Source: a virus (lineage: Duplodnaviria; Caudoviricetes). Taken from it: DNA of 52,418 nt. The stretch covers positions 1 through 52,418 of IMG/VR virus record IMGVR_UViG_3300036846_000061, one strand, 5' to 3'. The position numbers and the translations under genes are program-made. The notes below the pieces were generated by a model that made no database searches, was not told the origin of the DNA, and saw nothing but the letters and a program-made list of their open reading frames with translations. This document shows, piece by piece, positions 28,246 through 36,616 of the stretch. The first letter of the stretch is position 1; each line of letters opens with the position of its first letter.

Positions 28246-31038
28246 CTAGCTCGCGGACCCTAGGAACCTAAATCGGTCGATGTATACTCGCCTGCCTGAT
28301 CTTGCCATACCACCGAATATAAACCAATCGCCAATACTATGATCATTAAGTATTTGCAAACCTAATGATGGATACTTGAACCTTGATATAGTTGCATAGG
28401 CAGTGGCAGTATCATCCTCAATCAGTAAGTTTAGCCATTTATCCATCGGAACAACTACATTGTTACGCTGCACTAAGAACATAGTTTCATTAAGTGATCT
28501 TTCGTTTCGATGCACAATCTTTGCCATTAATGTAATTGGACCCTCATAGTTATCAGATAGGTCAATTAGGTCTTTGCGAGGTACATGAATGATATTATAC
28601 TTCTTTGGGTCCGAAATTACTTCAGCAAAACGTTTCCTGCCTTCAAATATGTTATCAAATGGAGTTGTTATTTCTTTCGGCCATTTATATGGAACTCTCG
28701 CAGCGCGCGCCAGGAGTATATCTTGAGCCTTACGGAAACCAATGCCCTTTATATTTACAAGACCGCCTAGGAACGATCCATCTGCATAGCTCCAAGTAAC
28801 ATCGCTCTTGTCTAGATCATAAGTAACAAATGGATAACCAGCACGATCCAATTCGCGCAAGTAACGTTTGATAGGTTCTTCAAATGATAAGTTTCTAATA
28901 TTGGCTAATGCAAACTCAATAGGATAGTGAGCCTTGAGTATACAACAAAAATAAGATAGCATACCATAAGCCACAGCATGAGACTTATTGAAAGCCCAAG
29001 ACCCCATTTTATTGACACTATCCCATATCCTCCTGGCCGTAGCCTCATCGATGCCCTGTGACATCGCACCAGTTCTAAACCTCTGCCAGAAACGATCAAA
29101 GTATTCAATACCAAAAGACTTAGACATAGCTTTGCGTAATGTGGAGGTATCTTCCCATGATAACAAACCAATCTCACGAACGCAATTCATAACTTGTTCT
29201 TGATAAACTATAACTCCATACGTGTCCTTAGTATAACGTTCCATAGATGGATGGATGTATTGGGCTTCTTGTTTGCCCATTCGTCGTTGGACCCACTCGT
29301 TACTGGCGCCAGAAGCGAATGGCCCTGGTCGAGCAAGAGCAGTAAGACAAGCTATGTCATCGAAACGATCTACAGTCAGTCTCCTGGCTAGGGTCTGCAA
29401 AGCTTGACCTTCAAACTGGAAGATACCGCAGAACTGAAACTTACGCAATACTTCAAAAGCTTTGTCATCATCTAAAGGATGATTTAGTAGATCACTATAC
29501 TTCCAACCTATAGCCTCTAGACAATCAGCAATTATAGTTAATGTCTTGAGACCTAGCGCATCTATCTTCATCAAATTGATTAGTTCGGCATCGTATTTGT
29601 CTATGTGAACTGTGTTAGTCTTTACATCCTTAGCTACATAATTGATAAGAGGCTCATTAGTTATAATGACACCGGCCGCGTGCTTACCAGTAGTATGTGC
29701 ATGGTTCTCTAGTTCTCCTGCAATAACCATAGCAGGATACTGTTCAATAAATCTTTGTCCAATCTCTAGTTCCTTGAACGTATCAAGAATACATAATCCT
29801 GCTCTTGAGTCTCCACTGGACCTCTTGAGCATTGAGTCCTTTAGTGCAATAGTATCATTGTCAGGTATCCTTAATGCTTTGGCTGCCTCTCCAATAGCTG
29901 ACTTGGGCTTATATCTTAGTATGGTTCCCAATCGCGCAACGTTCTCACTGCCATACTTATCTTGTATATACTCAAAGACCATTTCTCTTTTATTGTCTTG
30001 AAAGTCTATGTCAATATCCGGTAGATCATATCTAGTAACATCAATAAACCTTTCAAAGATAAGACCATGAGGGAGAGGATCAATATCAGTAATGCCAAGT
30101 AAGTAACACACGAGACTACCACAACTAGAGCCGCGAGCCGGTCCGACCAACATGTGTTGTTTAGCATATCGCACCATGTCTGTTATGACATAGAAGTAAT
30201 CATCATATCCTTTGTCGCTGATAAGTTTAAGTTCATAGTCTAGTCTGTCTTTGTATACTTGATTTAACTCTAGTCCACGGCTCCTGGCGCCCAAGAGACA
30301 CATATCTAGTAATGATATATCAGACTTATATTTGATATTAGTTGCAGTTTGTATAGTGGCATCACATTCTTCCGCTAGCTTGTCCGCCAGGAGAAAAGCT
30401 TGATCATCTATTTCCATTTCATTACGCAAACTCCATTCATCCATAATATACATAGGGGATGGTCGGTCATTGCGAAACTTCCTGGCCAATATTTGATAGA
30501 TAGAACGATCCTCTGCACTGATCATATAATTGTCAGATACTGCAACAATCTTTCCATCCTTTAGCAGCATACCTAATGTAGAAGGATGTCCCTCCCTATA
30601 TACGCGTGGCCCGATCTTAACGCCCTGTCCTAGACCTGAGTTACCTGAGAGTATAATGACATCTTTACTGAAACCATTAAGTCTTATGAAAGGTAAACGT
30701 AATATTGCATTGTAAGTATTCTCTGATGCTTCCTCTACAGCTGAGTATAGTTCTTTGAGTCCTGAATTAGTCTTGGCTATCAGTGATATCCAAAATATGT
30801 TTTGTCGCTTTTCACGAACATTTATATCTCTGACAAAAGCCATTTCGATCCCGAATAATGGCTTAATGCCGGCGGCTGTACATTGCTTAGACCATTGTAC
30901 ATGGCCGAATGTTGAGTTCTTATCAGTAATGGCCGCTGCTTGGCAACCTAGTTCTTGTAGTCTATTTATGACTTTGGGAATGGGCCCGTAGGCCCACCCA
31001 AATGAGAACTCAGTTCTTATCTTGAGTTGGGTCCTCAC
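28246..31038 (-). CDS. dnaE: DNA polymerase III alpha subunit-like (family C)
   Basis: PHP-like N-terminus, GPARGSSCGSLVCY, FERF, PDIDID, HAAGV, KIDALGL, FNKSHA. Confidence 0.95.
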   Translation of the reverse strand: MRTQLKIRTEFSFGWAYGPIPKVINRLQELGCQAAAITDKNSTFGHVQWSKQCTAAGIKPLFGIEMAFVRDINVREKRQNIFWISLIAKTNSGLKELYSAVEEASENTYNAILRLPFIRLNGFSKDVIILSGNSGLGQGVKIGPRVYREGHPSTLGMLLKDGKIVAVSDNYMISAEDRSIYQILARKFRNDRPSPMYIMDEWSLRNEMEIDDQAFLLADKLAEECDATIQTATNIKYKSDISLLDMCLLGARSRGLELNQVYKDRLDYELKLISDKGYDDYFYVITDMVRYAKQHMLVGPARGSSCGSLVCYLLGITDIDPLPHGLIFERFIDVTRYDLPDIDIDFQDNKREMVFEYIQDKYGSENVARLGTILRYKPKSAIGEAAKALRIPDNDTIALKDSMLKRSSGDSRAGLCILDTFKELEIGQRFIEQYPAMVIAGELENHAHTTGKHAAGVIITNEPLINYVAKDVKTNTVHIDKYDAELINLMKIDALGLKTLTIIADCLEAIGWKYSDLLNHPLDDDKAFEVLRKFQFCGIFQFEGQALQTLARRLTVDRFDDIACLTALARPGPFASGASNEWVQRRMGKQEAQYIHPSMERYTKDTYGVIVYQEQVMNCVREIGLLSWEDTSTLRKAMSKSFGIEYFDRFWQRFRTGAMSQGIDEATARRIWDSVNKMGSWAFNKSHAVAYGMLSYFCCILKAHYPIEFALANIRNLSFEEPIKRYLRELDRAGYPFVTYDLDKSDVTWSYADGSFLGGLVNIKGIGFRKAQDILLARAARVPYKWPKEITTPFDNIFEGRKRFAEVISDPKKYNIIHVPRKDLIDLSDNYEGPITLMAKIVHRNERSLNETMFLVQRNNVVVPMDKWLNLLIEDDTATAYATISRFKYPSLGLQILNDHSIGDWFIFGGMARSGRRVYIDRFRFLGSAS

Positions 31039-31339
31039 TTACAAAACTCCTTAGCTCCTGGTTTACTGGTATCATGGAAACATAGATATCTGCTAGTTCT
31101 AATAGCTGTCGTTCAATTTTCATTAGGTCTTGTAACACATTTATACTGAATTCTTTTACTCGTATGCATCTGTCTTTATGATCTTCATGCCAGAACTTAG
31201 GGTCGGTGTATGTTATGATATTCTTGACGCCTTGTAAAGACTGATCTATTGCTAGTCCTAATAATCTTGTTCTCCTACGGTTCTCAAATTCCTCCTGGCG
31301 CTTGTTCGCTGCATCTATCATTGACATAGGTTTCATCAT
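31010..31339 (-). CDS. Hypothetical protein
   Basis: Coupled between exonuclease and polymerase. Confidence 0.6.
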   Translation of the reverse strand: MMKPMSMIDAANKRQEEFENRRRTRLLGLAIDQSLQGVKNIITYTDPKFWHEDHKDRCIRVKEFSINVLQDLMKIERQLLELADIYVSMIPVNQELRSFVSEDPTQDKN

Positions 31340-31890
31340 GCCGATGGTCCTTCTGTCCATTGACGATTAACCATTTCTTTGTAGACGCGAACTAATGCTT
31401 TGGTATCAGCTTCTGCTCTATGAGCCTCTTCAAATGTAGCTCCAAATAATTCAAAGTATAAATTACTGAGAGACATGCGATGTCCTTTGACTTTCATAAT
31501 CTCCTCGACAGTACATACATTATTAGGAGGCCACGGGAAGTTTGTTACTTTGTTTATACGCTTGAGTTCATATTCTAATACATGCTTATCAAACTGTAGA
31601 TTATGTCCGACAAGTATAGATACATCAAGGAAGAAATTGGCTAGTTGTCTATAGTGTCCTGCAAATGGCTTTTGGTTCGCTACCTCTTCATCAGTAATAC
31701 CATGTATGTTAACTACCTCAAATGGTATTCGTATTGGTGGCTTAACTAATGTAGTGAGAATTGCTATGATGTCTAGATTATAATTGGTCTTTACACAAGA
31801 GACTTCTACCATGTACGGTTGTTGAGCTAGGTCAGCAGCCTCAATTGCCAGGAGCGATGTTGTTTCTATATCCATAAAGATTATGGGCAT
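31336..31890 (-). CDS. DEDDh 3'-5' exonuclease (DnaQ/epsilon-like)
   Basis: DIETT, HGIT, GHNLQFD, HRAEAD motifs. Confidence 0.92.
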   Translation of the reverse strand: MPIIFMDIETTSLLAIEAADLAQQPYMVEVSCVKTNYNLDIIAILTTLVKPPIRIPFEVVNIHGITDEEVANQKPFAGHYRQLANFFLDVSILVGHNLQFDKHVLEYELKRINKVTNFPWPPNNVCTVEEIMKVKGHRMSLSNLYFELFGATFEEAHRAEADTKALVRVYKEMVNRQWTEGPSA

Positions 31891-32174
31891 TCTTTTTCTC
31901 CATCCAATTCAAGTAACATAGTTGCATATACTGCTATATCTTCAAGATGATCTGGACTTGCTTCTATATAAAAATTGTTACAATATCGTGATAGTTTTGT
32001 TACTATATGGACTATAATACAGAACTTATTGAAACGATGTTTTGTTTCTAATTCTATTCCATTGGGGAATAATGCTTGAAGTATTGCTCCTGCTTCTTTA
32101 TAGCTGTCTCCATACTCTTTGTTTCTTTCTTCATATAGTTTTGCTAGTTCTATTAGTTGTTCTGCTGGTTTCAT
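31881..32174 (-). CDS. Nucleotide-modification-associated helical protein (DUF1599/DUF6378-like)
   Basis: ERNKEYGDSY...KLSRY...DHLEDIAVYA motif. Confidence 0.65.
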   Translation of the reverse strand: MKPAEQLIELAKLYEERNKEYGDSYKEAGAILQALFPNGIELETKHRFNKFCIIVHIVTKLSRYCNNFYIEASPDHLEDIAVYATMLLELDGEKECP

Positions 32175-32650
32175 TAGTATTTCTTCCCTTCTGGCGCCAT
32201 ACGATTTTCTATTTTGTGATCCGCTCTCATCTGATTATAGCAGAACTTCTCAGCAAAACAAGTTCCAAGATTGAGTCGTAATCCTCCTGCCAAATCAAAT
32301 ATGCGTATAAGAGCGTCGGCCAATTCTACTGTCATTGATGCTTGTTCAGTTAGATGTTGGTCCTTTGCATCTTTGCGATGACCTTCCATTGCCTCGCTGA
32401 TCTCGCTATGTATAAGGCATAGTAATTCTCCTACATTGCGTTCCTTATCCCACCAGTTATTTGCCTTAGCAGCGCCGTGACAAAATGATACTAGGTTCTC
32501 TATCATGAGACCCATTTTGTAGTATGTATCGACAGTAACGATGAAACCATTGGTATCAGTATCTGTGAGCATATCATTATCCTGTTGTTGACTTTTAGCA
32601 AATCTTTCTACTATTGCCCATTCCTCTGGAGTAAAACCTTTTGGGATCAT
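32174..32650 (-). CDS. MazG-like nucleotide pyrophosphohydrolase
   Basis: LIHSEISEAMEG.RK...ELADALIRIFD motif; start chosen after the CCAGGAG RBS. Confidence 0.85.
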   Translation of the reverse strand: MIPKGFTPEEWAIVERFAKSQQQDNDMLTDTDTNGFIVTVDTYYKMGLMIENLVSFCHGAAKANNWWDKERNVGELLCLIHSEISEAMEGHRKDAKDQHLTEQASMTVELADALIRIFDLAGGLRLNLGTCFAEKFCYNQMRADHKIENRMAPEGKKY

Positions 32651-32655
32651 TTCTA

Positions 32656-33402
32656 TTACTCCTGGCGGATTATGTCGAGATACTTCATTGCTGCCCAAGC
32701 TGCAGTTTCATTTTGAGACTTACCTGTTTCTTTAACCTCTTTGTCTAGTTGTCCCTTTAGATACTGAGCTAACTCTTGATGAGCTTCACTATTGCGAGGC
32801 ATAATAAACATTAGAGACCAAGGCCATACTTTCAATACAGCTTCAACCATTTGCTTTAATACTTCAGCGTATTCATCTTGAACTCTTGGAGTCATACGCT
32901 TCTTGACTAGATCAGAGAAGTTACGCAAATTGATCTTCATACAAATGTTAGTTAGAATATCTGTCGGCAATACTCCACGAGCATCTTCAGGCTTTACACC
33001 CATCTCAATTAGTTCACGATATGCCTCTGAAATATCATACATTGCCTCTCCATATCGCTCTTGGGCAGGAGTATTGTACTTAAATGATGGACCGGAATGA
33101 TATTCAAATCCGGTCATATTAACTATACGCATAGCCTGTTGAGCATAGCTCGCAGTTCTAGTGCGAACAAGCTGATGAGTAAAAGCTCGTGATACTCCTT
33201 CAATAACAAAAGTTATATCACAAAACTCCCAACTGCTAGGTATGGTTGTTGACATATACTTCAACTCGGCCATTTTCTTTTCTCGTGGCCAAGCTTTGAT
33301 TTCTTCTAAACCAGCAGGAGCCATTCGCAGTCTAGTGTTCTTTGTAAAGATAAGCAATTCAACGGCATCTTGCGTATAGGATATGAGAGTAACCTTAGGC
33401 AT
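32656..33402 (-). CDS. thyX: ThyX-family flavin-dependent thymidylate synthase homologue, divergent active site
   Basis: FVIEGVSRAFTHQLVRTRTASYAQQAMR, EDARGVLP, INLR; RHR is RTR and S-x-R is A-x-R. Confidence 0.85.
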   Translation of the reverse strand: MPKVTLISYTQDAVELLIFTKNTRLRMAPAGLEEIKAWPREKKMAELKYMSTTIPSSWEFCDITFVIEGVSRAFTHQLVRTRTASYAQQAMRIVNMTGFEYHSGPSFKYNTPAQERYGEAMYDISEAYRELIEMGVKPEDARGVLPTDILTNICMKINLRNFSDLVKKRMTPRVQDEYAEVLKQMVEAVLKVWPWSLMFIMPRNSEAHQELAQYLKGQLDKEVKETGKSQNETAAWAAMKYLDIIRQE

Positions 33403-33562
33403 TGTTCATCTCCTGTTCTACTTCAGTTATGGCAATATTGATGGTTTTTTCAGCAATCTCACCTGGAAATCGGTAAGCTCTCCATTCAGTCATTGTAATA
33501 ATTTTGGTAGATTGAAATGTTCTATCATCTTTAGTTTCGGAAACTACTATAAGTATTCTCAT
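33395..33562 (-). CDS. Hypothetical protein (55 aa, MRILIVVSETKDD...)
   Basis: Hand-translated; AGGAG RBS; fills the gap. Confidence 0.6.
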   Translation of the reverse strand: MRILIVVSETKDDRTFQSTKIITMTEWRAYRFPGEIAEKTINIAITEVEQEMNNA

Positions 33563-33572
33563 GGTTCTACTC

Positions 33573-34490
33573 CTATGCTGGGAAGTATTGGTAGTGTCCT
33601 TGTCTTACTTGTCTTTGACTTATGAACCTACTGATGATATCTATATCTTTCATTACATCATCTAATAGTATCTGCCGCCAAGTAGCGTATCGTCCTAATG
33701 AATATACATTGAACTGATCAGTCGCCCAAAGTATAAACTTCTGGCGCTCATAATCGTCTATTGGGACTATCTTGCCATAATCTTGTTCTTTATGAAGAAC
33801 ATTAATATACTTGTTACCTTGTCCAAATAAAATGTCAATATACTTTTCAATAAATTGATGACCAGTCGGAACATTGCTAAATTCCATAGTCATCCTATTA
33901 CCAGTAATGCTAACTCTATAAGGTTCATGTTCTCCATATGGAACATAGAGCGTTTGATATACATTTACTCCTATAAGATCACAATTGATAGTCCATATCT
34001 TTCTAGTTTGGAATTCATGTCGATTTGGATAATCAAGTATACGCATCAAATCAGGCATGGGGATTGTGGAGATGATAGGTTGTTTAATGTCGGTTCCCCT
34101 AAGTAAACTCTCAGCATCACGCTCGTATTGTATATTGGTTCCAATGCTACATGTCGTGACCAAGTCGCTGGGTGCAATGTAGCGTGAAACATTGTCAGTA
34201 TTGGTAATAGATCGGCTGGAAACTCTACCAGTTGATTTGATAGAATAAGCATTATATTCGCGGATGGTTGGAGAATTTGTAATTGTTTCGTTTTCAAGTA
34301 AAACACCCTTATAAACAGTTACTTGTTTGAAGGGAACTCCAATTGCGTCTCCTACTATAGATGACCGAAAGCGCAATAATGCGCTATGATTATTAGGTAA
34401 GTCCTTTTGTCGTTCATATACTATAGGCTTCCAATTGGACATTCTCCTCGCGGCCAGGAGACCTGCTAAGCCTGCGCCGATGATTATCAT
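33573..34490 (-). CDS. FAD/NAD-dependent oxidoreductase-like protein
   Basis: IIGAGLAGL Rossmann motif; C-terminal SLGRYATWR. Confidence 0.85.
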   Translation of the reverse strand: MIIIGAGLAGLLAARRMSNWKPIVYERQKDLPNNHSALLRFRSSIVGDAIGVPFKQVTVYKGVLLENETITNSPTIREYNAYSIKSTGRVSSRSITNTDNVSRYIAPSDLVTTCSIGTNIQYERDAESLLRGTDIKQPIISTIPMPDLMRILDYPNRHEFQTRKIWTINCDLIGVNVYQTLYVPYGEHEPYRVSITGNRMTMEFSNVPTGHQFIEKYIDILFGQGNKYINVLHKEQDYGKIVPIDDYERQKFILWATDQFNVYSLGRYATWRQILLDDVMKDIDIISRFISQRQVRQGHYQYFPA

Positions 34491-34493
34491 TAT

Positions 34494-34979
34494 TCAACTC
34501 CTGGATTCAAACCATTCCCACTCCGGCTGATAGCCTTCCATCTTGTACATGTAACCTTGCAAGTATTTGTAAGGCCACATCTTTCCATATAGTTTCTGAT
34601 GTATTGCTTTCAATACATTTAGATGTTTACTTGATAGTCTAATATCATCAAAGTTTTTGTCGGCTATGTCGAGTAGATCACGTTCAATTTGACTGAACTG
34701 ACTACCTTTCTTTTTGGCTTCATAAAGAAAATCTTTGAACTTCATTACTTCAATAGGGTCTTGGATTAGATTATATGGAACCTTTTGTCCATATTTCTTG
34801 ATCCTTTCTTCCATTGACAATTCTTCATCTGGAACTTCATGCACATTCGATGTTTCTTCATAATCATCATGATATATAGTATCAATTTGTTTCGCCATTG
34901 TATCTAGTCTAGCTTCAAATCTATCAAGCCTATCCAATAGTTCTTTTGCAAGATTGAGCGGAATATAAGTATTGTTCAT
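34494..34979 (-). CDS. Hypothetical protein
   Basis: 161 aa; AGGAG RBS. Confidence 0.7.
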   Translation of the reverse strand: MNNTYIPLNLAKELLDRLDRFEARLDTMAKQIDTIYHDDYEETSNVHEVPDEELSMEERIKKYGQKVPYNLIQDPIEVMKFKDFLYEAKKKGSQFSQIERDLLDIADKNFDDIRLSSKHLNVLKAIHQKLYGKMWPYKYLQGYMYKMEGYQPEWEWFESRS

Positions 34980-34999
34980 TTTACTCTCCTATGTTAAGT

Positions 35000-35122
35000 G
35001 GGCGCGACCATTCTTAACCTATTATCATTACCCAGGGCAGTTTACCCACCGCAATAATGTTGAATAACCATGGAAGGGGGCACTATTGCTTAGGGAGAAT
35101 GGTCATGTCGCCATGCGCGCCC
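35000..35122 (-). ncRNA. Candidate multibranch structured RNA element
   Basis: Nested stems GGGCGC/GCGCCC, GACCATTCT/AGAATGGTC, GCAATAGTG/CATTATTGC and a CATG-GCGA-CATG hairpin. Confidence 0.45.
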
Positions 35123-35158
35123 GTCATGTGGAGGCACACCCCTGGAACCCCTAATCAA

Positions 35159-36010
35159 TTAGAATGACGGGATTTTGTCACCAGCAAGATCATCTTGAGG
35201 CTGTTCCCAATTATCCTGTTGTACACTACCTTCCAGGAAATGTTCTTGCAGCAGTATAGCCTGCTTAAAGATATCATTGCCTTTCGGTAGGTCTTGTGTT
35301 CTTACATGCATATTATCTTTGTTTACATACTTTACAATCTTGGGAGACCACCAAGACTGTCCTTGCATATTCCTCACCAAATCTAGCGTCAACTTGTATG
35401 AGAAGTAATAGAACGGCGGAGTAATGGTTTGACCATTACTCATTTTGATCCTGGTCTGTGTCAACATCGTCGCCAGGAGGTTAGCTGCACGATTACCTGT
35501 GCTTCTCAAGTTGAAGAAGCTAGGGTCAGTATCACCAGTCTTAGGGTCAATATCAAGAATGAGGAATGACCTCTGCTTATCAATATAGTGTTGATCCCTA
35601 GTAATAGGATTGAGAGCGTCGCGCTGAGCAGGCTCGCACAGAGCCTTCCAACCTTCATCTGAGCCCCAAATCTTTACAAGACCACTACCAGGATTATTAG
35701 AAGCCCATTCAATAGTCTGTTTCTGATGCCCAATAACGACGATGATCATTCCCTCCTGGCCAGGAGTCAATTTGTTACTCGCAGTATTGTAGAACATGCC
35801 CGGCTTAGCACCATCAATATAGGCATTACCTCCCTCCTGAACCTCAGGATTAAGTGGCTGTAGTATCTTTAGGCGCGGAACAACTTGCTCATTACGTTCA
35901 AACTTAGTATTCTTCTCGGCCAACTTGGCCAGCATTTCCTCTTCTGCAGTAAGTTGAACAGGCAGTTGCTCGGAAGAAGCACTGTCTTGACGAACTACAC
36001 GCTTTGCCAT
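35159..36010 (-). CDS. Putative single-stranded DNA-binding/annealing protein
   Basis: PRLKILQ..NPEV...GAKPG motif; acidic C-terminus ending IPSF; replication context. Confidence 0.6.
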   Translation of the reverse strand: MAKRVVRQDSASSEQLPVQLTAEEEMLAKLAEKNTKFERNEQVVPRLKILQPLNPEVQEGGNAYIDGAKPGMFYNTASNKLTPGQEGMIIVVIGHQKQTIEWASNNPGSGLVKIWGSDEGWKALCEPAQRDALNPITRDQHYIDKQRSFLILDIDPKTGDTDPSFFNLRSTGNRAANLLATMLTQTRIKMSNGQTITPPFYYFSYKLTLDLVRNMQGQSWWSPKIVKYVNKDNMHVRTQDLPKGNDIFKQAILLQEHFLEGSVQQDNWEQPQDDLAGDKIPSF

Positions 36011-36019
36011 TTTGCTCTC

Positions 36020-36520
36020 CTACTCTATTACAGTGATATTGTAGCGGAATACATTGAAGATGTCTTCAGGGATCACCATATGGTTCCTTTCCATTTCCTT
36101 TCCCCAGGCATTGAGAGTTTGATAATGTATATCTTTCTTGACTATATACTCTATGCGTAAATTGTCTAGTGTTTCTTTAATCTCTGGTAGACGCTGATTA
36201 CCTTTGCCTAATGAAATGTCAATCATGGTCTTGACCATTCCTCCATGGCCATGTTCAGTTAGCCATTGATCAGCCAACTCCATACGATCTTGTGGTGGAC
36301 GTTGCAAAGTAAGAACAGGCTTGACTGCAATAGTAAAGCCACTAGATAGGTCAAATTTATTGAGACCGATACCGGCCATTAACATTGGAAGATCAACAGA
36401 GGATATTTGTTTTAGTTGATCTTTCTTTACTCTCAATTCATCTTCTAACGATGCTATTTGCTTTTCAATCTTTACCATTTCAGATGCTAACTTAACTATA
36501 TTTTGTATACTGTCTGACAT
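36020..36520 (-). CDS. Conserved phage replication-module protein (coiled-coil N-terminus)
   Basis: LP.LM..IG...WL..HGHG..VK...IHYQTL.AW; AAAGGA RBS before ATG 36520. Confidence 0.7.
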   Translation of the reverse strand: MSDSIQNIVKLASEMVKIEKQIASLEDELRVKKDQLKQISSVDLPMLMAGIGLNKFDLSSGFTIAVKPVLTLQRPPQDRMELADQWLTEHGHGGMVKTMIDISLGKGNQRLPEIKETLDNLRIEYIVKKDIHYQTLNAWGKEMERNHMVIPEDIFNVFRYNITVIE

Positions 36521-36616
36521 ATCCTTTCCTTTTGAGTAGTGGGAGATGGCCTCCTGCCAGAAACCACCTCCCCAGGAACATACACGAGCACTCACCCGAC
36601 CATCGGGCGAAACGAG

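Follow-up and report, generated by a model that had tools for sequence, protein, structure and literature searches.

An altered ThyX-like protein paired with a flavoprotein in phage replication loci: a candidate module for C5-modified deoxyuridylate

Introduction

What does a ThyX-family enzyme make when residues held to be critical for thymidylate synthesis have been replaced? The question is raised by a locus of an uncultured phage, the complete 52,418-bp virus record of which, with direct terminal repeats, was analyzed as a whole and is here called the window. An earlier note on this DNA had placed an altered ThyX in a set of enzymes that would make a non-canonical pyrimidine nucleotide and remove the normal one. 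According to the excerpted text of PMC8316439, canonical ThyX can take free formaldehyde onto its reduced flavin and then pass it to dUMP. A 2025 structural paper (PMC11940539, in excerpt) describes Ser88 and Tyr91 of ThyX as "strictly conserved" and critical by mutagenesis and His53 as a stacking partner of both the folate pterin and the reduced flavin, which bears out, for Ser88 and His53, the note's premise that Ser and His residues of ThyX matter for catalysis and folate binding.

In the thymidine hypermodification of phages M6, ViI, SP10, and PhiW-14 (Lee et al. 2018, 2021), the C5 carbon is put in place on the nucleotide by a thymidylate-synthase-type enzyme, the gene of which adjoins replication genes (PMC8989533, in the part available), as does the ThyX-like gene of the window. 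However, these four phages use a ThyA-family dUMP hydroxymethylase, whereas ThyA-family PF00303 gave no match in the window and none in the five related phage genomes checked, in all of which (5/5), as in the window, the ThyX-like gene is the sole thymidylate-synthase-family gene.

Results

Organization of the locus

The genes from the flavoprotein to DnaE run head to tail on the minus strand (Table 1), and their coordinates confirm the set described earlier, i.e., an altered ThyX beside an FAD-type gene, a hydrolase, an exonuclease, and DnaE. The 55-aa ORF between the two flavoenzyme genes had tblastn matches in 0 of 80 related loci. The MazG-like gene probably starts at the ATG at 32650, giving 158 aa, rather than at the TTG at 32698. 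The window carries the module in minimal form, a single hydrolase and the helical protein joining the ThyX-like protein and its flavoprotein with no further tailoring enzymes; a PHROG scan of its 47 ORFs found none of the SDR, VOC, and HAD genes common among relatives and named no 5-hmdU DNA kinase or downstream tailoring enzyme.

Table 1. Features of the locus and its flanks, with positions in the window
Feature	Position	Strand	Basis or remark
161-aa ORF, Pam3 gp34-like and Pam3 gp33-like proteins (same block, upstream)	34494..36595	-	PF23977 9.4e-26, PF23984 5.7e-23
FAD-type flavoprotein, 305 aa	33573..34490	-	phrog_4828 6.7e-58, function unknown; predicted fold
55-aa ORF between both flavoenzyme genes, doubtful gene	33395..33562	-	sub-threshold DUF3850 match only
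ThyX-like protein, 248 aa, altered phage-specific clade	32656..33402	-	Pfam Thy1 127.3 bits
IPSSWEF, residues 54-60 of the ThyX-like protein	33223..33243	-	canonical counterpart H.S..EH
RTRTASYAQQAMR, residues 80-92 of the ThyX-like protein, then Ile	33127..33165	-	canonical counterpart RHR..S....S.RY
MazG-like all-alpha NTP pyrophosphohydrolase (putative)	32174..32698	-	174 aa from TTG; PHROGs "pyrophosphatase"
Four-helix protein (predicted), 97 aa	31881..32174	-	C-terminal part of phrog_4889, 2e-9
DnaQ-type 3'-5' exonuclease	31336..31890	-	RNase_T 7.1e-20; phrog_192 2e-39
116-aa ORF	31010..31360	-	
DnaE-type DNA polymerase III alpha	28246..31038	-	PHP, DNA_pol3_alpha, and finger domains; phrog_405 2.9e-224

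A full-length ThyX-family protein with replaced hallmark residues

By its profile matches, the ORF at 32656-33402 encodes a full-length ThyX-family protein. It covers positions 1-191 of the 191 in Pfam PF02511 Thy1 (cut-off, 24.8 bits), reaches 95.8 against NCBIfam TIGR02170 thyX (equivalog cut-off, 87.9), and has M. tuberculosis ThyX as its best match in a profile search against the PDB (1e-14). The domain that defines canonical ThyX (PF02511 and TIGR02170; T. maritima TM0449 and the M. tuberculosis enzyme) is common to the window protein over its full length. A weak match (5.4e-5) was also obtained with PDB 4p5a, entitled "Thymidylate synthase ThyX", which we take to be PolB, the ThyX-family UMP/dUMP methylase of polyoxin biosynthesis. 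PolB offers a precedent for a ThyX-family enzyme outside dTMP supply, and it presumably keeps the canonical ThyX catalytic residues.

Residues were counted in an alignment of the window protein and the 119 cluster representatives closest to it, using T. maritima numbering. The altered signature reported in the earlier note (IPSSWEF and RTRTASYAQQAMR) was found at residues 54-60 and 80-92, and replacement of the canonical residues recurs among the 119 relatives. In this alignment, the equivalents of H53, H59, H79, S88, and Y91 are non-canonical, reading I (Ile54), F, T, A, and I in the window protein. Across the clade, the H53 position holds I/V/L/N (His, 0/119), the H59 position F/M (His, 0/119), and the H79 position T/S/N (His, 5/119), while S88 is replaced by T in 58 and by A in 55 of the 119 sequences, with S in 6, and the Y91 position is occupied by V/I/M and others (Tyr, 0/120). 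The equivalents of R78, R80, R90, R147, and R174, instead, are Arg in 119-120 of 120, and those of Q75 and S83 are likewise conserved. In a separate alignment of 35 sequences, 39 columns are invariant, including, as numbered there, R72, H76, Q77, R80, R82, Q88, R92, R142, and R169. The H..EH, RHR, and S.RY motifs are intact in the canonical comparators, namely, M. tuberculosis ThyX and the ThyX of Clostridium phage phiCP39-O and Bacillus phage DZ1. Replacement of the hallmark residues is thus, in the alignment, a feature of the whole clade, with the nucleotide-binding arginines kept.

An obligate flavoprotein partner

The gene-neighborhood survey proposed in the earlier note revealed a tight pairing, since a flavoprotein gene lies upstream in 76 of 80 ThyX-like viral loci and, in reverse, a ThyX-like gene lies downstream in 78 of 80 flavoprotein viral loci. 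The four exceptions of the first kind are contigs with less than 320 bases ahead of the ThyX gene and the two of the second kind are contigs that end less than 425 bases past the flavoprotein; all six are cut contigs, and the flavoprotein is an obligate partner of the ThyX-like gene in the loci surveyed. Counts by host word in the phage database agree for the ThyX-like protein and the flavoprotein (Pseudomonas, 292/292; Escherichia, 27/27; Serratia, 9/9). The clade differs in this respect from canonical ThyX, as no such flavoprotein lies within 8 kb of the ThyX genes of phiCP39-O and DZ1. Nor is one present within that distance of the altered ThyX-like genes of two actinophages, Lambo and PBI1, or anywhere in the Lambo genome; therefore, the altered motif alone does not require the partner. 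The flavoprotein family comprises 1012 representative clusters at 50% identity (E<=0.001), and hosts of the phages that carry it include Pseudomonas, Escherichia, Serratia, Vibrio, Rhizobium, and Xanthomonas.

The 305-aa protein has an N-terminal GxGxxG FAD fold, and its AlphaFold model (pLDDT, 94.5) was best aligned by VIA-align with UDP-galactopyranose mutase (UGM; Z 21.5, rmsd 3.5, 293/305 residues aligned), followed by protoporphyrinogen oxidase (PPO; Z 19.4) and MAO/LAAO (about Z 17). Foldseek gave E 1e-9 for the model against UGM. At the sequence level, Pfam returned only sub-threshold N-terminal Rossmann matches and no match to the GLF domain at E<=10, and hhalign against E. coli Glf covered residues 1-37 only, with a probability of 26%. 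The UGM (Glf) chains listed are also longer (360-510 aa), the FAD Rossmann motif being common to both. The protein is thus predicted to adopt a UDP-galactopyranose-mutase/amine-oxidase-type flavoprotein fold, and its likeness to UGM, judged from the model, is one of fold only, with PPO and amine oxidases scoring nearly as high. The former label of FAD oxidoreductase holds as far as the flavoprotein nature of the predicted fold is concerned, while Pfam lends it nothing beyond the sub-threshold matches.

Hydrolases, helical protein, and accessory enzymes

The label of MazG-like pyrophosphatase stands in part. The protein matches PHROGs "pyrophosphatase" families (phrog_5658, 2.7e-45; phrog_3301, 1.8e-24; phrog_9236, 4.8e-15), and MazG is named in 48-67% of the members of its Atlas neighbors (score, 0.90-0.91), but it has no Pfam MazG match at E<=10 and no PDB sequence match. 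The 97-aa protein is modeled as a small four-helix protein (pLDDT, 89.3), for which a fold search against the PDB gave no match at E<=0.001 and the best VIA alignment (Z 7.6) lay on a helical hairpin. Its assignment as DUF1599-like finds no support, since neither the protein itself, even at E 10, nor any of 36 related ORFs matches PF07659; 13 of the 36 match DUF6378 below its cut-off (best, 25.1 versus 27.1 bits). Present in 61/80 ThyX-like and 71/80 flavoprotein loci, it is a conserved companion of the module's hydrolase. Pbunavirus, Wifcevirus, and certain IMG/VR loci have it as a fusion with an HAD_PNKP phosphatase, and one locus (L041) as a fusion with a MazG-like part.

Hydrolases of three types accompany the module, i.e., MazG-like, HAD_PNKP (44 of 76 loci examined, as well as Pbunavirus and Wifcevirus), and HD-type, the last as a YfbR-like 5'-deoxynucleotidase to which the flavoprotein of one representative (P0162) is fused. 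Farther from the window's version, the module gains SDR (37 of the 76 loci), VOC (24), methyltransferase-like (11), and carbamoyltransferase (2) genes, and in Vibrio phage VA-RY-3 the locus includes a sulfotransferase-like gene. In 14 of the 76 loci, a pyrimidine-dimer-glycosylase-like gene (PF03013, 3.9e-14) lies inside the module.

Pbunavirus relatives and their modified thymidine

The earlier note had pointed to a similar DnaE/ThyX/FAD set in PB1-like Pseudomonas phages, and we found it, in equal gene order, in the pbunaviruses LBL3, F8, and 14-1 (FAD-like, altered ThyX-like, hydrolase plus helical domain, exonuclease, and DnaE). The replication block of Pbunavirus and Wifcevirus resembles that of the window, with Pam3 gp33/gp34-like genes (ORF051 and ORF052 in F8), flavoprotein, ThyX-like protein, hydrolase plus helical domain, DnaQ, and DnaE. 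Identity between Pbunavirus and the window is about 38% for the ThyX-like protein and about 33% for the flavoprotein; in the Pbunavirus ThyX-like protein the motif is RTRTGAYQQETSR and the C-terminal part is longer, and the Pbunavirus hydrolase is an HAD_PNKP phosphatase fused to the helical domain, whereas that of the window is MazG-like.

According to the excerpted text of PMC12191111, about one-quarter of T in the virion DNA of F8 and 14-1 is replaced by a thymidine derivative (362 U and 390 U), and its TG context was inferred by the authors from digests with ten restriction enzymes; that text assigns no genes to the modification and does not mention ThyX. Since F8 and 14-1 lack a ThyA-family gene and have a single Thy1 gene, the ThyX-like protein is their only thymidylate-synthase-family candidate for the C5 side chain. 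The modified base was shown for F8 and 14-1 only (Yee et al. 2025, bioRxiv 10.1101/2025.03.31.646159, in the part available), and the window phage is known from its sequence.

Discussion

The reading that we favor, tentatively and at somewhat below an even chance, is that a flavin module acts before replication to make a C5-modified deoxyuridylate. What is observed is how the genes are arranged, which residues differ, that the pair is obligate, and what fold is predicted; from these we infer substrate, product, and the role of each partner. Because the arginines, Gln, and Glu are retained, the ThyX-like enzyme would still bind FAD and a deoxyuridylate-type nucleotide. It lacks three canonical residues, i.e., the His on which folate and NADPH stack and two, Ser and Tyr, proposed to assist the flavin-carbinolamine step, and would therefore most likely follow an altered route in adding a carbon unit to dUMP at C5. 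Instead of plain dTMP, a different thymidine-type nucleotide would result, such as 5-hydroxymethyl-dUMP or a larger, sugar-derived C5 adduct, for which the UGM-fold flavoprotein may supply or prepare the carbon donor or reduced flavin. The MazG-like pyrophosphohydrolase and its helical companion may shape the pool, either by converting dUTP to dUMP or by removing the competing normal nucleotide, and the phage's DnaE and exonuclease would serve to incorporate the product into DNA. Removal of the normal nucleotide, as the earlier note had it, is only suggested by the hydrolases found with the module.

We favor this C5-modified reading because hallmark residues are replaced clade-wide while the nucleotide-binding ones are invariant, because the pairing is obligate and the partner's predicted fold is nearest UGM, because ThyX has a precedent in formaldehyde transfer, more distant members of the module add tailoring-type enzymes, and hydrolases of three types occur with it, and because F8 and 14-1 carry both the pair and a hypermodified thymidine. 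Several observations argue against it. Thr, found at the S88 position in 58/119, could still donate a hydrogen bond, the actinophage genes occur without the flavoprotein, the UGM likeness is one of fold, and the window has no SDR, VOC, or HAD genes and a ThyX-like protein about 38% identical to that of Pbunavirus.

In the main rival reading, quite possible if on the whole doubtful, the ThyX-like protein is instead a genuine dTMP synthase whose phage clade has diverged, with DNA thymine normal, the MazG-like protein acting as a dUTPase-type supplier of dUMP, and the flavoprotein as a helper, e.g., a dedicated NAD(P)H-dependent reductase or one-carbon supplier compensating for the lost His53 site. 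A full-length Thy1 match above the TIGR02170 cut-off, with all nucleotide-binding arginines kept, in the only thymidylate-synthase-family gene of the window and of 5/5 relatives would fit such an enzyme as well. In Rhizobium phage RHph_TM30, moreover, the gene adjoins dUTPase and ribonucleotide reductase genes, where an ordinary thymidylate synthase would be expected; the PHROG scan of the window named no tailoring enzymes, and most T of F8 and 14-1 is normal. However, H53 and Y91 are lost in every clade member and S88 in 113/119, although they are called critical for the canonical reaction, the canonical ThyX genes of phiCP39-O and DZ1 do without such a partner within 8 kb, and the recurrent tailoring enzymes and 5'-nucleotidase-type hydrolases would be superfluous for a plain dTMP synthase. 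Loss of these three residues would also agree with a ThyX-like protein devoid of catalysis that would serve the replication complex as a subunit, either structural or nucleotide-binding, but this is very improbable given how very strongly the other active-site residues are conserved (39 columns without variation among 35 sequences) and the obligate linkage to a second flavoenzyme.

The TG context and the persistence of about three-quarters of T as normal in F8 and 14-1 are easier to reconcile with a step after replication than with a route via the nucleotide pool. Thymine or uracil of DNA would then be acted on in sequence context by both flavoenzymes or by the flavoprotein alone, with the ThyX-like protein confined to precursor supply or DNA-base binding, and both the PF03013 gene in 14/76 loci and the position of the module next to the replicase are in line with it. 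We nevertheless consider it quite unlikely, as residues holding a mononucleotide phosphate are retained in the ThyX fold, mononucleotide hydrolases accompany the module, Pfam detected no DNA-binding domain in the ThyX-like protein or the flavoprotein, and the TG context is based on ten restriction enzymes only.

A more specific form of the C5-modified reading draws on UGM, which acts via a reduced-flavin N5-sugar adduct. By analogy with UGM and galactose and with ThyX and formaldehyde, the altered ThyX and its UGM-fold partner might form a folate-independent flavin system in which an anomeric or aldehyde sugar carbon is held on flavin N5 and passed to C5 of dUMP, giving a C-linked sugar or sugar-alcohol deoxyuridine before replication; we consider this unlikely. 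As computed here, a mass of 362.3 equals dU + pentose - H2O + 2H or 5-hmdU + tetritol - H2O, and 390.3 equals dU + hexose - H2O or 5-hmdU + pentose - H2O, so the published nucleoside masses fit a C-linked sugar as well as ether or glycoside derivatives of 5-hmdU.

Among Pseudomonas therapy phages, pbunaviruses belong to those used most, and their thymidine hypermodification was found only in 2025. With the altered ThyX and flavoprotein pair as their only thymidylate-synthase-family candidate, the question is now testable, and the minimal core of the window, or cultivated look-alikes, for which Vibrio phage VA-RY-3 and Cronobacter phage vB_CsaP_Ss1 are candidates, offers the simplest system for testing the pair's product. 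Should the product be other than dTMP, the pair would represent a second, flavin-based entry into DNA thymidine modification, and the annotation "thymidylate synthase" would be wrong on hundreds of phage genomes. Should it be dTMP, ThyX would be shown to function in the absence of residues regarded as essential.

Gene block of the phage

According to our analysis, the window is a complete record of 52,418 bp with direct terminal repeats, and a PHROG scan of its 47 ORFs identifies a contractile-tailed phage. The portal, protease, major head protein, sheath, tape measure, baseplate, fibres, and terminase are encoded on the plus strand, and the replication block is on the minus strand. There, the flavoprotein, ThyX-like, MazG-like, and 97-aa genes lie head-to-tail and are directly followed by the exonuclease gene, a 116-aa ORF, and dnaE, in agreement with the earlier note, which placed this module in front of the phage's own exonuclease and DnaE. 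A DNA search of window positions 31300 to 35000 against the phage database gave no match at megablast level. A 55-aa ORF between the flavoprotein and ThyX-like genes has a counterpart in 0 of 80 related loci and is doubtful as a real gene. The stored cluster record of the ThyX-like protein is 222 aa long, from Met27, and the Atlas copy of the flavoprotein begins at residue 17, by which the invariant GxGxxG is lost; both stored calls seem to use the wrong start Met. The shorter version of the MazG-like ORF, from the ATG at 32650, looks correct.

Features of the window's gene block and of related loci (window positions unless a locus, L, is named)
Feature	Location	Strand	Family or remark
Pam3 gp34-like and gp33-like proteins	35159-36595		PF23977, PF23984; precede the module
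FAD-type flavoprotein, 305 aa	33573-34490	-	phrog_4828
ThyX-family protein, 248 aa	32656-33402	-	Pfam Thy1, TIGR02170
MazG-like protein, 174 aa	32174-32698	-	PHROG pyrophosphatase families; ATG at 32650 likelier start
Helical protein, 97 aa	31881-32174	-	four helices
DnaQ-type exonuclease	31336-31890	-	
116-aa ORF	between DnaQ-type exonuclease and DnaE	-	
DnaE	28246-31038	-	
F8 ORF070	L090 15894-17090		
14-1 gp71	L091 15997-17301		
Sulfotransferase-like gene, Vibrio phage VA-RY-3	L001 7366-8121		PF13469, 5.8e-7
Carbamoyltransferase	L029 5537-7366		PF02543, 3.8e-49
Pyrimidine-dimer DNA glycosylase-like gene	L072 7980-8498		PF03013, 3.9e-14
RHph_TM30 gp190	L165 5617-6576		flavoprotein homologue, E 6.2e-37; annotated 'polysaccharide deacetylase'
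Gordonia phage Lambo gp81	L087 7926-9074		called 'thymidylate synthase'
Mycobacterium phage PBI1 gp65	L089 7743-8843		called 'thymidylate synthase'

A ThyX-family clade with altered motifs

The altered ThyX motifs described in the earlier note are real: residues 54 to 60 of the ThyX-like protein read IPSSWEF and residues 80 to 92 read RTRTASYAQQAMR. Pfam Thy1 is matched over its full length (127.3 bits), and the score against the NCBIfam thyX equivalog is 95.8, above its cut-off of 87.9. Alignment with ThyX comparators finds the canonical motifs in Mycobacterium tuberculosis ThyX (GHFSVLEH ... RHRHFSYSQLSQRY), Clostridium phage phiCP39-O (HTSPLEH ... RHRTFKFNVQSQRY), and Bacillus phage DZ1 (GHTSTLEH ... 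RHRVGFGFSVQSQRY), and altered ones across the clade. When the window protein is aligned with the 119 cluster representatives closest to it (Thermotoga maritima numbering), the H53 position is occupied by I, V, L, or N and the H59 position by F or M, with His in 0 of 119 at either site, and the H79 position is T, S, or N, with His in 5 of 119. The S88 position is T in 58, A in 55, and S in 6, and that of Y91 is V, I, M, or other residues (Tyr in 0 of 120), whereas Q75, R78, R80, R90, R147, and R174 are kept in 119 to 120 of 120 sequences. Since these counts extend over 119 relatives, the motif change is fixed throughout a large clade and is no peculiarity of a single protein. The available portion of PMC11940539 describes Ser88 and Tyr91 of ThyX as strictly conserved and critical by mutagenesis, and His53 as stacking against the pterin of folate in the oxidised ternary complex and, with reduced flavin, against the isoalloxazine. 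In this clade, the ThyX fold retains its nucleotide and flavin contacts, whereas the His that stacks on folate and the Ser/Tyr pair are gone. Trp58 of the window protein is a candidate for occupying the folate pocket.

Linkage of the ThyX-like gene and the flavoprotein

The flavoprotein is inseparable from the ThyX-like gene. Among the best 80 IMG/VR loci retrieved by the ThyX-like alignment, it is encoded upstream on the same strand in 76, and the remaining 4 have fewer than 320 bases of sequence ahead of the ThyX gene; conversely, 78 of the best 80 loci retrieved by the flavoprotein alignment have the ThyX-like gene downstream, and in the other 2 the sequence runs out within 425 bases of the flavoprotein. 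The helical protein, exonuclease, and DnaE are present in 61, 66, and 63 of the former 80 loci and in 71, 72, and 61 of the latter, but the MazG-like gene in only 9 and 8, respectively. GenBank phage records matching the ThyX-like protein and the flavoprotein number 585 and 362, and the counts for both are equal in Pseudomonas (292), Escherichia (27), and Serratia (9) phages. No flavoprotein partner was detected within 8 kb of the canonical thyX genes of phiCP39-O and DZ1 (n = 2).

One limit to the pairing rule is set by the actinophages Lambo and PBI1. They carry an altered ThyX-like protein (RQRTAAYSQESTRF, with an N-terminal segment without His) adjoining DnaE, and no flavoprotein is found within 8 kb in either phage, nor genome-wide in Lambo. 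Both proteins possess a long Cys-rich C-terminal part; their neighbours include a FabG-like reductase and a methyltransferase and, in Lambo, an annotated MazG-like protein.

Fold of the flavoprotein partner

The PHROG family of the flavoprotein bears the function label unknown. The protein has 1012 representative relatives at E<=0.001, which are almost all viral, judged by Atlas neighbours. The designation "FAD oxidoreductase" in the earlier note agrees with the UGM-type flavoprotein fold of the structural model but finds little echo in Pfam, where no family exceeds the cut-off and N-terminal Rossmann hints are all that is seen; a sequence search of the PDB gave no match at E<=1. The model, built from 63 sequences, is confident (pLDDT 94.5) and best matches UDP-galactopyranose mutases (Z 21.5, rmsd 3.5 over 293 residues), followed by protoporphyrinogen oxidases (Z 19.4) and amine oxidases (Z about 17). 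Only the first 37 residues, the Rossmann start, align between the family and Escherichia coli Glf in hhalign; hence, we dropped the identification as a true UGM and use the label "UGM-fold" for the predicted structure. A complex prediction for two ThyX-like chains and the flavoprotein scored 0.00 without controls, which bears neither for nor against binding.

Elsewhere, members of the family are named 'oxidoreductase' (Pantoea phage Kyle), 'UDP-galactopyranose mutase' (Escherichia phage Mansfield), or hypothetical. The metagenomic representative P0162 (506 aa) carries an N-terminal YfbR-like HD 5'-deoxynucleotidase domain (PF12917, 8.3e-12), and this two-domain form may be genuine or may come from two gene calls joined together.

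Hydrolase and small helical protein

The "MazG-like" label is backed by three PHROG pyrophosphatase families and by Atlas neighbours, but not by Pfam, which gave no match, or by PDB sequence searches, which returned only insignificant coiled-coil rows. The label "DUF1599-like" for the 97-aa protein had to be abandoned, since there is no match to Pfam DUF1599 at E<=10 and none among 36 related ORFs; weak matches to DUF6378 occur in 13 of the 36, all below its cut-off. The protein is modelled as a four-helix structure (pLDDT 89.3). Foldseek returned nothing at E<=0.001, with faint MazG rows at E 2.7 to 4.4, and the best hit of a wide VIA search (Z 7.6) fell on helical hairpins, so that no fold relative is named. 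The protein is instead informative by association, since its counterparts are fused to the module's hydrolase elsewhere. Pbunavirus and Wifcevirus, like some IMG/VR loci, have the fusion with a HAD_PNKP phosphatase, and locus L041 has one with a MazG-like part. The type of hydrolase varies among modules, and the small helical companion is constant.

Related modules and modified thymidine in Pbunavirus

When we surveyed the region from flavoprotein to DnaE in the 76 loci with both genes, scanning 35 of 133 ORF clusters, chosen as the largest or longest (rarer families fall outside the counts), we found a HAD_PNKP phosphatase in 44, a short-chain dehydrogenase in 37, a VOC/glyoxalase-like protein in 24, a pyrimidine-dimer-glycosylase-like protein in 14, a methyltransferase-like protein in 11, a MazG-like protein in 8, and a carbamoyltransferase in 2. 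The glycosylase-like gene (L072 and 13 other IMG/VR loci) directly follows the ThyX-like gene, and the flavoprotein-to-DnaE block holds the sulfotransferase-like gene in VA-RY-3 and the carbamoyltransferase in L029. The PHROG scan of the 47 window ORFs detected no tailoring genes, and the window therefore shows a minimal form of the module. Among cultivated phages, the minimal module is carried by Vibrio phage vB_ValP_VA-RY-3, Cronobacter phage vB_CsaP_Ss1, and Ralstonia phage PY059YO380.

PB1-like phages, named in the earlier note as having a similar gene set, indeed carry the same block (Pbunavirus LBL3, F8, and 14-1), as does the Wifcevirus member Bas99, but window and Pbunavirus proteins are only 33 to 38% identical. 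The Pam3 gp33/gp34-like pair is common to both and adjoins the helicase genes in F8; therefore, the window has the entire replication block in common with PB1-like phages, and not the ThyX pair alone. About one-quarter of thymidine in virion DNA is replaced by a novel nucleoside, of 362 U in F8 and of 390 U in 14-1, in a TG context inferred by the authors from ten restriction enzymes; in the portion of the report available, the biosynthetic genes are not named, and neither ThyX nor thymidylate is mentioned (Yee et al. 2025, PMC12191111). By arithmetic, the two masses fit equally well 5-hmdU ether or glycoside derivatives and C-C adducts at C5 of dU, with a pentose (reduced) or a hexose joined to that carbon. 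The ThyX-like gene is ORF059 in F8 and gp60 in 14-1, and the flavoprotein gene is ORF065 and gp66, respectively. Between F8 and 14-1, identity is 93.8% for the ThyX-like protein, 97.3% for the flavoprotein, and 80.8% for the HAD-helical protein. The most divergent gene of the replication region is ORF070/gp71 (56.9%, against 94 to 99% for most neighbours), with no Pfam family. Since the thymidine modification differs between the two phages, ORF070/gp71 and the HAD-helical protein may be worth a look.

Possible products of the pair

UGM forms a flavin N5-sugar adduct. We propose that the ThyX-like enzyme would keep the flavin-mediated transfer of a carbon to C5 of dUMP, with a carbon donor, or a fate of the intermediate, differing from those of canonical ThyX. 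The latter takes free formaldehyde onto reduced flavin, as stated in the accessible part of PMC8316439. These two precedents make carbon transfer with another donor or fate plausible, and the product could well be non-canonical, 5-hmdUMP or else a larger adduct at C5, a reading we favour tentatively. Several observations argue against it: the ThyX-like protein passes the thyX equivalog cut-off, about half of the clade has Thr at the S88 position, the copy in RHph_TM30 sits with dUTPase and ribonucleotide reductase, the window has no tailoring enzymes, and identity to the Pbunavirus proteins is low. Furthermore, the TG context in Pbunavirus points to a post-replicative step. Action of the pair on DNA is deemed improbable, and a non-catalytic role of the ThyX-like protein, whose nucleotide and flavin contacts are kept, very improbable.

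The plainer possibility, somewhat less probable in our judgement but a serious one, is that the enzyme makes ordinary dTMP with a helper flavoprotein. A second thymidylate synthase would have argued for another job of the altered enzyme, but F8, Bas99, VA-RY-3, RHph_TM30, Lambo, and the window each have a single Thy1 gene and lack any ThyA-family gene; as no other thymidylate-synthase-family gene turned up in any genome checked, this result speaks against a non-canonical product and for plain dTMP.

In the literature on phage ThyX, Pbunavirus, Wifcevirus, and UGM, we found no paper assigning a function to the ThyX-like/flavoprotein pair. What is new here is a clade of the ThyX family that is obligately paired with a flavoprotein, and if its product is a modified base, the pair would represent a new type of pathway.
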